Shown: one piece after another, positions 4,549 through 6,011 of the stretch
Layout of the letters: each line of letters starts with the position of its first letter
How positions within the stretch are numbered: the stretch's first letter is position 1
IMG/VR virus record: IMGVR_UViG_2874915312_000006
Length of the DNA: 14,997 nt
Reading direction: 5' to 3' (one strand)
Origin: a virus
Lineage: Duplodnaviria; Heunggongvirae; Uroviricota; Caudoviricetes
Notes under the pieces: model-generated
Databases searched by the model: none
What the model saw: the letters and a program-made list of their open reading frames with translations, nothing else
What the model was told of the DNA's origin: nothing
Made by a program: the position numbers and the translations under genes

Positions 4549-4612
4549 TGAGGTAGCCTGAGTTTAACGGACACTCCTTCCTGAAATAGAATGGCATCAG
4601 AAGGAGCTAATA

Positions 4613-4915
4613 ATGAGCAGAAAAACCCAACGTTACTCTAAAGAGTTCAAAGCCGAAGCTGTCAGAACGGTTCTTGAAAATCAACTTTCGATCAGTGAAG
4701 GCGCTTCCCGATTATCCCTTCCTGAAGGCACTTTAGGACAATGGGTTACCGCCGCCAGAAAAGGGCTCGGTACTCCTGGTTCCCGCACGGTGGCTGAACT
4801 GGAATCTGAAATTCTGCAACTGCGTAAGGCGTTAAATGAAGCTCGCCTTGAGCGAGATATATTAAAAAAAGCAACAGCGTATTTTGCACAGGAGTCGCTG
4901 AAAAATACGCGTTAA
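4613..4915 (+). CDS. IS600 OrfA (HTH regulator), 100 aa
   Basis: MSRKTQRYSKEFKAEAVRTVLENQ...DILKKATAYFAQESLKNTR; IS3-family OrfA architecture. Confidence 0.85.
   Translation: MSRKTQRYSKEFKAEAVRTVLENQLSISEGASRLSLPEGTLGQWVTAARKGLGTPGSRTVAELESEILQLRKALNEARLERDILKKATAYFAQESLKNTR
4864..4870 (+). promoter_or_regulatory. A-rich slippery run (A AAA AAA), candidate -1 frameshift site for IS600 OrfAB
   Basis: TTA AAA AAA GCA near the orfA 3' end. Confidence 0.5.
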
Positions 4916-4950
4916 TCGAACAATGGCGACAACAATTTCCCATTGAAGCG

Positions 4951-5769
4951 ATGTGTCAGGTATTTGGTGTATCCAGGAGCGGTTATTACAACTGGGTACA
5001 GCATGAACCCTCAGACAGAAAACAAAGTGATGAGCGGCTAAAACTGGAGATTAAGGTGGCACATATCCGCACTCGCGAAACATATGGAACCCGGCGGCTC
5101 CAGACGGAGTTGGCAGAGAATGGCATCATCGTTGGTCGTGACCGACTGGCACGTCTTCGTAAGGAGCTAAGGCTACGCTGTAAGCAGAAACGCAAGTTCA
5201 GAGCGACTACGAACCCGAACCACAATCTGCCAGTTGCGCCAAATCTGCTGAACCAGACGTTCGCTCCTACAGCACCAAATCAGGTCTGGGTGGCGGACCT
5301 GACGTATGTTGCCACACAGGAGGGATGGTTGTACCTCGCTGGCATCAAAGATGTTTATACGTGCGAAATTGTCGGCTACGCCATGGGAGAGCGCATGACA
5401 AAAGAGCTGACAGGTAAAGCCCTGTTTATGGCGCTCAGGAGCCAGCGCCCACCTGCCGGGCTAATCCACCACTCTGATCGAGGTTCACAGTACTGCGCAT
5501 ACGATTACCGGGTCATACAGGAGCAGTTTGGTCTGAAAACATCAATGTCGCGTAAAGGTAACTGTTACGACAACGCTCCGATGGAAAGCTTCTGGGGAAC
5601 GCTGAAAAATGAGAGCCTGAGCCACTATCGTTTTAATAACCGGGATGAAGCCATCTCAGTAATACGGGAATACATTGAGATTTTCTACAATCGTCAGCGT
5701 CGTCACTCTCGTCTGGGGAATATCTCCCCGGCAGCCTTCAGGGAAAAATATCATCAGATGGCTGCTTAA
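4951..5769 (+). CDS. IS600 OrfB transposase (DDE domain)
   Basis: 272-aa track ORF with IS3-family integrase-core features (NQVWVADLTYV..., HSDRGSQY..., ...NCYDNAPMESFWGTLK). Confidence 0.85.
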   Translation: MCQVFGVSRSGYYNWVQHEPSDRKQSDERLKLEIKVAHIRTRETYGTRRLQTELAENGIIVGRDRLARLRKELRLRCKQKRKFRATTNPNHNLPVAPNLLNQTFAPTAPNQVWVADLTYVATQEGWLYLAGIKDVYTCEIVGYAMGERMTKELTGKALFMALRSQRPPAGLIHHSDRGSQYCAYDYRVIQEQFGLKTSMSRKGNCYDNAPMESFWGTLKNESLSHYRFNNRDEAISVIREYIEIFYNRQRRHSRLGNISPAAFREKYHQMAA

Positions 5770-5812
5770 AAAAAGAACAAATGGTAGTGTCCGCTATTGC
5801 CAGTACACCTCA

Positions 5813-6011
5813 ATTCTTTGGCATTTTTTACCTCGTTACGCGCGTCTGTGGCTTTGCCAACGGATACTTCCGCGTGCGCACGAGTGAACCAGTGCGTGGC
5901 AACGTCTTCCTCCACAACATGACGGCCTTTAACAAACTCGCGCCGAGAACCGTCGGGAAGCGTGAGCACAAACGGGGTATGTACGTGTATTACTGCATCA
6001 TTTTTTGCCAT
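5813..6011 (-). pseudogene. Phage gene immediately downstream of major capsid, 3' end truncated by IS600 (66 phage-derived codons)
   Basis: ATG at 6009-6011 is preceded by AAGGA at good spacing. The frame (MAKNDAVIHVHTPFVLTLPDGSRREFVKGRHVVEEDVATHWFTRAHAEVSVGKATDARNEVKNAKEL) runs into IS600 at 5812, after which the track ORF continues in IS-derived sequence. Confidence 0.5.

Follow-up and report, generated by a model that had tools for sequence, protein, structure and literature searches.

Does the IS600 copy in the late region of this prophage mark a simple insertion, or does it stand where phage genes used to be? The stretch of DNA analysed here, called the window below, comprises 14,997 nt and is listed as a Caudoviricetes record (IMGVR_UViG_2874915312_000006). 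It holds an ipaH-carrying prophage remnant of a type that combines lambdoid early genes with an E217/Pam3-like myovirus late region. The set and order of the head genes, the DUF4376 gene and the ipaH gene with its NEL domain at the tail-fibre end, and synteny with two enteroinvasive E. coli (EIEC) loci identify this prophage type. These loci are L001 (strain VL40, NZ_CM177011.1) and L002 (strain FDAARGOS_943, NZ_CP065615.1), the latter with the prophage between pgl and ybhA. As a prophage the locus is incomplete: its terminase gene is cut by IS2, its tail module is absent, and the window is without early and lysis regions. In this decayed S. flexneri prophage, an IS600 copy occupies the place of about 15 kb of tail genes. 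The features of the window are collected in the table.

Features of the window, in order of position.
Feature	Position	Strand	Remarks
IS2 in integrase gene	541-1874		5-bp duplication TGATC; simple insertion
IS911	2094-3341	-	no duplication (GCT vs GAG); truncates ipaH
ipaH E3-ligase effector, 3' fragment	3342..3750	+	last 409 bp, end of NEL domain (Pfam NEL); truncated by IS911
DUF4376 gene	3930-4547	-	Pfam DUF4376; first 5 nt removed by junction, start would be Met3
Tail-fibre gene stub	4504-4548	-	last 14 codons plus stop, HVSGAMPGLFIRTS*; compare L001 2186-3454
orfA of IS600	4613-4915	+	HTH_Tnp_1 match (helix-turn-helix)
orfB of IS600	4951-5769	+	rve, rve_3, rve_2 and HTH_21 matches; -1 frame relative to orfA
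Fusion ORF, STY1053-family/IS600	5766-6011	-	81 aa
Truncated STY1053-family post-capsid gene	5813-6011	-	last 7 codons (23 nt) lost at IS600
DUF4054 head-tail connector gene stub	5813-5824	-	first 4 codons, ATGCCAAAGAAT (MPKN); compare L001 19605-20012
Retained head module (capsid to terminase C-terminal part)	6053..11580	-	99.86% identity to EIEC strain VL40
Major capsid protein	6053-6994	-	Pfam Major_capside
Cement/decoration protein	7006-7512	-	Pfam Phage_cement
DUF2213 gene	7516-8736	-	Pfam DUF2213
Mu-F-like protein	8740-9522	-	Pfam Phage_Mu_F
Portal	9374-10840	-	Pfam Phage_portal_3
Large terminase, C-terminal 741 nt only	10840-11580	-	cut by IS2
IS2 in terminase gene	11581..12899	-	no 5-bp duplication (ATTGC vs ATTAA)
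IS1 variant	12942-13709		768 bp; no 9-bp duplication

The element at 4549..5812 (plus strand) is a complete IS600 of the IS3 family, 1264 bp long with orfA and orfB intact, and 99.8% identical to E. coli copies annotated as "IS3-like element IS600 family transposase". It starts with TGAGGTAGCC... and finishes with ...GGTACACCTCA, its imperfect terminal inverted repeats are of the form 5'-TG...CA-3' (TGAGGTAGCCTGAGTTTAACGGACACT versus TGAGGTGTACTGGCAATAGCGGACACT), and an A-run lies near the end of orfA. Size and identity, inverted repeats and the frames of orfA and orfB are all those of IS600; the one defining feature that is lacking is the target duplication of 3 bp. The triplets outside the element are ATG (4546-4548) on the left and ATT (5813-5815) on the right, the mismatch that the preliminary description had already pointed out. 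Other IS600 copies in related loci are flanked by CAA/CAA (L002) and AAC/AAC (L001), and for a further copy a TAT duplication was reconstructed. The mismatch is informative because simple IS600 insertions in these loci show 3-bp duplications: the copy in the window does not occupy the site of a simple insertion, and the very lack of a duplication is evidence of recombination. The window IS600 is the hybrid, or recombinant, copy that forms the junction between its two flanks. A 30-nt inverted repeat (83% complementary) between 5436-5465 in IS600 orfB and 10715-10744 in the portal gene is probably fortuitous.

To the right of IS600, open reading frames and Pfam matches bear out the minus-strand order that had been claimed, from the terminase to the capsid gene, followed by a truncated gene, IS600 and a late gene. 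The gene at 5813..6011 does run into IS600, as proposed: 66 of the 73 codons of this STY1053-family gene are kept (full-length counterpart, L001 19978-20199), and 15 further codons are read from the right end of IS600. The DUF4054 connector gene, of which a stub overlaps this truncated gene, is the first gene of the missing tail block. Overall, the head module is 99.5-99.9% identical to those of enteroinvasive E. coli prophages. The capsid, cement, DUF2213, Mu-F-like and portal ORFs (6053-10840) are full length despite the ruin of the terminase, tail and ipaH genes; most other genomes of S. flexneri have a cement gene shortened to 118 codons.

To the left of IS600, the fragment described before as a late-type gene is indeed present; specifically, it is a DUF4376 gene, with a fragment of the ipaH effector gene beyond it and a conserved ORF of 59 codons on the same side. 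The tail-fibre gene that left a stub here is the last gene of the missing tail block. A nonsense codon TAG (CAG to TAG on the minus strand) interrupts the DUF4376 gene at 4410-4412 and was seen only in the window, in CP026803.1 and in the drafts AFGY01 and AFGX01; this SNP could serve as a lineage marker. The idea of a DUF4376 defect common to the window and some drafts was rejected, as the window lineage has its unique nonsense SNP and the drafts have only homopolymer indels, which are probably sequencing errors. Exact-protein look-ups of the 54-aa ORF at 4410-4574 and of the integrase fragment at 1-570 returned no record. The left flank is 97.3% identical to L001 and L002, and 99.6-100% identical to S. 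flexneri loci that run from DUF4376 and ipaH into pgl, ybhD and ybhH. The intact EIEC prophage occupies the same chromosomal site (pgl/ybhA) as this S. flexneri flank, so both IS600 flanks belong to one prophage.

Alignment of the two flanks to intact relatives, the check that had been suggested, placed them at distant points of one late region and in the same orientation in both EIEC loci. The right flank starts at 20001 in L001 as well as in L002, a point separated by 23 nt from the 3' end of the STY1053-family gene. The left flank stops at L001 2230 and L002 3647; this point lies 5 nt into the DUF4376 gene, and the overlapping tail-fibre gene has 45 nt left from there to its end. The flanks are colinear on the same strand and lie 17,770 bp (L001) or 16,353 bp (L002) apart, about 14.8 kb after subtraction of the IS insertions that these loci have acquired themselves. 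In both, the interval is the whole contractile-tail module of 20 genes. From the head end, it comprises the DUF4054 connector, two small head-tail genes, neck terminator, sheath and tube; then tail assembly chaperone(s), tape measure, baseplate hub, plug, spike and sheath initiator; and at the far end baseplate J, wedge, fibre, fibre assembly protein and a second fibre gene. Further relatives agree: the right flank runs on into DUF4054 and tail genes in 12 of them, the left flank continues into a tail-fibre gene in 10 of the 10 E. coli/EIEC genomes that match it over its whole length, and the head module continues directly into the tail module at all of ten further places with the same sheath protein. 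In no relative are the two flanks adjacent, the arrangement that would have spoken for a mere insertion. Judging from this gene order and from the two gene stubs, the tail module once lay exactly where IS600 is now, as the preliminary description had it. The exact sheath protein was found in head-tail contiguous loci only, with no S. flexneri genome of this analysis among the records listed; a slightly diverged copy could escape such an exact match.

The window is 100% identical over 4030-14997 to S. flexneri 89-141 (CP026803.1), a serotype Y strain (PMC9455713). For the comparison with other S. flexneri genomes we abbreviate the IS600 flanks as D (DUF4376), H (head side), M (Mu-like transposase) and R2, L1 and R1 (RecE region). 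The D-IS600-H junction of the window was present in three assemblies (CP026803.1, AFGY01 and AFGX01). The 81-aa fusion ORF, which marks the head-side junction, was found by exact-protein look-up in 471 blocks of the collection. Among the matches listed for it, the far side of IS600 was not DUF4376 in any of ten S. flexneri places (strain 8401 included): here IS600 adjoins a Mu-like transposase gene truncated to 544 aa, followed by ner, repressor, dcuC, pagP and cspE. The same M-IS600-H arrangement was read in 24 contigs from a look-up of the Mu-like transposase, and the picture was the same wherever the contig sequence sufficed. The truncated transposase occurs in 945 blocks, whereas the marker of the window lineage occurs in only 18 contigs.

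In the same M-H genomes, the DUF4376-side junction is intact as well, but IS600 is followed by a gene of 67 aa and a RecE fragment (D-R2). Beyond the RecE fragment lies a second, inverted IS600, and then YdaE, Rha and the early region. M-H and D-R2 coexist about 200 kb apart, at 0.69 and 0.90 Mb in CP178302.1 and at 3.64 and 3.86 Mb in CP033510.1. L1 (...GCATAT) and R2 (TATTGGC...), which are contiguous in L002 (GCATAT^TGGC), are split in S. flexneri between two inverted IS600 copies. This split proves directly that two IS600 copies of this prophage have recombined with inversion. The window IS600 thus belongs to a network of IS600-IS600 recombination, with M-H, D-R2 and L1-R1 in most S. flexneri and D-H in the window lineage. 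Since other S. flexneri genomes pair both half-junctions otherwise, the junction in the window could be secondary. In one further locus (L076, KN150719.1, 4557-7645), the 67-aa gene and RecE fragment adjoin ybhC, and pgl, ipaH and DUF4376 are missing.

By SNPs in the head module (5.7 kb), the window lineage and the sampled genomes of the other type, all taken together, form sister groups: 6 changes from the EIEC type are common to both, 2 occur in the window lineage alone and 7 map to the stem leading to the other clade. Given this sister position, the order of events is not fixed by the distribution of the two arrangements. Within IS600 itself, the window copy has A621 and T980 like the EIEC copies, whereas all M-H, D-R2 and L1-R1 copies have G621 and nearly all have C980. 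Going by their SNPs, the IS600 copies are mosaics, which indicates gene conversion among them; internal SNPs were therefore dropped as a decisive guide to the order of events. Some further variation was seen among these copies. In the common arrangement (L003-L012 and L040-L048, at about 11463 and 7633), the fifth base of the head-side IS600 is changed from G to A (TGAGATAGCC), and TGA, the first three bases of IS600, closes the Mu-like transposase ORF. The IS600 between YdaE and RecE has a 25-bp deletion (positions 765-789) in L007, L013, L014, L016, L018, L049, L053 and L057, and is full length in L050-L052, L054, L055 and L058. SNP patterns at one and the same IS600 site differ between strains, suggesting that copies may have exchanged sequence by gene conversion.

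A target duplication (TGATC) accompanies only one of the window's five IS elements, the IS2 in the integrase gene; IS600, IS911, the terminase IS2 and IS1 lack one. The terminase IS2 joins the C-terminal part of the terminase gene to 42 bp of ybfA-proximal DNA (ybfA/IS1/ybgA region) and is another recombinant junction. As the terminase IS2, IS911 and IS1 junctions all lack duplications, the genome of the window has been rearranged repeatedly. The two IS2 copies (541-1874 and 11581-12899) are 99% identical, in inverted orientation, and bracket the whole remnant. IS911 joins the 409-bp ipaH fragment to an unrelated integrase fragment that was unmatched in the related prophage loci fetched. The IS1 variant shares 90.8% identity with the IS1A copy of L001 and 99.2% with another IS1 copy, in L060. 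It directly adjoins a symE-like toxin gene, the two lying within 12942-14359. In other S. flexneri genomes (L021-L029) symE and IS1 are separated by an rhs gene of 1128-1554 codons, so the window lineage has also lost rhsC here.

How did the head module come to be joined to the DUF4376 gene? The route that we favour, giving it about an even chance, is a one-step deletion between two direct IS600 copies. Two like-oriented copies would have been acquired by separate insertions, one at each end of the tail module: the first within the STY1053-family gene, 23 nt short of its end, the second 5 nt inside the DUF4376 gene, at a point also 45 nt short of the end of the last tail-fibre gene. The progenitor insertions would read GGCAGACTTTGATT+TGAGGTAGCC and TACACCTCA+ATGTGCATCCGGC, with ATT and ATG duplications, respectively. 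Homologous recombination between the direct repeats would then have excised the tail module of about 15 kb and 20 genes as a circle, leaving one hybrid IS600 whose left-flank ATG stems from one insertion site and whose right-flank ATT stems from the other. The proposal of an IS600-associated deletion that removed most of the tail genes stands as far as the net loss is concerned; in fact the whole module is gone and not only most of it, and loss in a single step between two direct copies is likely rather than proven. In a DNA search restricted to E. coli, no simple IS600 insertion with a duplication was present at either site in 5,426 complete genomes. For the reciprocal junctions (tail side to IS600, and IS600 to tail-fibre side), complete E. 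coli genomes gave no record covering at least 80% of either query. In the relatives, look-ups returned only recombinant partners of each half-junction.

The triplets ATG and ATT differ at one base only, as they might after a simple insertion whose target duplication had mutated. Nothing would then have been deleted, whereas every relative with both flanks has them 16-18 kb apart, the right flank enters DUF4054 and tail genes in the 12 relatives, and the left flank enters a tail-fibre gene in 10 of 10. The distance between the flanks, together with the stubs of the first and last tail genes, excludes a simple insertion with a decayed duplication; the mapping refutes this reading, and we give it practically no weight. 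Hardly more credible is a mis-join of the assembly across a repeated element. IS600 is a high-copy element in Shigella and repeats are typical sites of misassembly, but one complete genome and two independent draft assemblies have identical flanks. A deletion by a single IS600 is somewhat more plausible, if still improbable. Here an element inserted at one of the two sites would have caused an adjacent deletion by intramolecular transposition, for instance through an IS dimer or a one-ended attack on the other, distant site, with no need for a second resident copy. The missing duplication, the intact orfA and orfB and the lack of a progenitor insertion at either site in complete E. coli genomes fit this route. 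On the other hand, IS3-family elements move by a copy-out/paste-in mechanism via a circular intermediate, and their transposition normally spares the flanking DNA. Homologous exchange between IS600 copies did occur in this prophage and IS600 is abundant in S. flexneri (PMC4226921), which makes recombination the simpler explanation.

The most serious competitor of the favoured deletion is an inversion, which we regard as possible though less probable. According to this alternative, the ancestor had M-H together with an inverted D-R2, and an exchange between these IS600 copies about 200 kb apart rejoined the head module to DUF4376. The tail module would have been lost earlier by other steps, and D-H would be one state of an inversion polymorphism of about 200 kb (M-H plus D-R2 to and from D-H plus M-R2). 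The coexistence of M-H and D-R2 in the same complete genomes (see above) speaks for this possibility, as does the orientation of the loci: the copies are mutually inverted, and one exchange gives exactly the D-IS600-H of the window. The common arrangement is also by far the commoner one, and the other IS junctions without duplications in the window are in keeping with such a history. An inversion predicts the reciprocal M-IS600-R2, that is, the Mu-like transposase ...CACGGTTTAT, IS600, and TATTGGCTACG... of the 67-aa gene. This junction was not found via the Mu-like transposase, the 67-aa gene or the RecE fragment, which is weak evidence, as strain 89-141 was never among the contigs listed. 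A direct recombinant of the M-H and D-R2 copies would carry G621 and C980 unless converted later, so that A621/T980 of the window copy is mild counter-evidence. Moreover, in the head-module SNP tree the window lineage splits off ahead of every sampled genome with the other arrangement, so that arrangement need not be ancestral. Reasoned from the observed junctions, deletion and inversion histories require equal numbers of insertions and exchanges, but the inversion additionally needs a separate, unobserved loss of the tail module. If the inversion were true, the "tail deletion" of 89-141 would be the chance rejoining of two older breakpoints.

Where does the locus stand among known elements? 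The near-intact ipaH prophages of the EIEC strains FDAARGOS_943 and VL40 have the same order of terminase, portal, Mu-F, DUF2213, cement, capsid and STY1053-family genes, with DUF4376 and ipaH at the far end. They differ in having kept the 20-gene contractile tail, and their DUF4376-ipaH end shares only the 97.3% identity given above. The common S. flexneri remnant (8401, 2002017, NCTC1 and others) has identical head-side and DUF4376-side IS600 junctions and the same position of the terminase IS2, but its head side is joined to the truncated Mu-like transposase gene by dcuC and its DUF4376 side to the 67-aa gene and RecE fragment. It is established that IS elements mediate deletions and inversions in cryptic prophages and during the reduction of Shigella genomes. 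As in other cryptic prophages that decay in this way, a hybrid IS without target duplication joins non-adjacent DNA, with no difference in kind. The junction is ordinary IS-driven prophage decay, an already known kind of event and no new system. Chromosomal ipaH genes of S. flexneri have been described in phage-derived "ipaH islands" (PMC4226921, citing the original genome paper), and IS-related coding sequences number in the hundreds in S. flexneri genomes, IS1 and IS600 being the most frequent elements (PMC4226921). The window resembles these islands in that a chromosomal ipaH lies beside phage remnants and IS elements, but its ipaH is only the 409-bp 3' fragment left by IS911.

Lacking the tail module, the locus cannot build tails, and with its terminase gene broken by IS2 it cannot package DNA. 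By its gene content, it is a dead prophage and a fixed remnant. The analysis documents the inactivation of one ipaH-bearing S. flexneri prophage; it has little significance beyond annotation and raises no new biological question. Interpretation of one window by itself can go astray at a single IS600 copy, as sister lineages pair the same half-junctions with other partners. The junction is an example of structural variation driven by IS600 and could serve as a marker of the 89-141-like clade.
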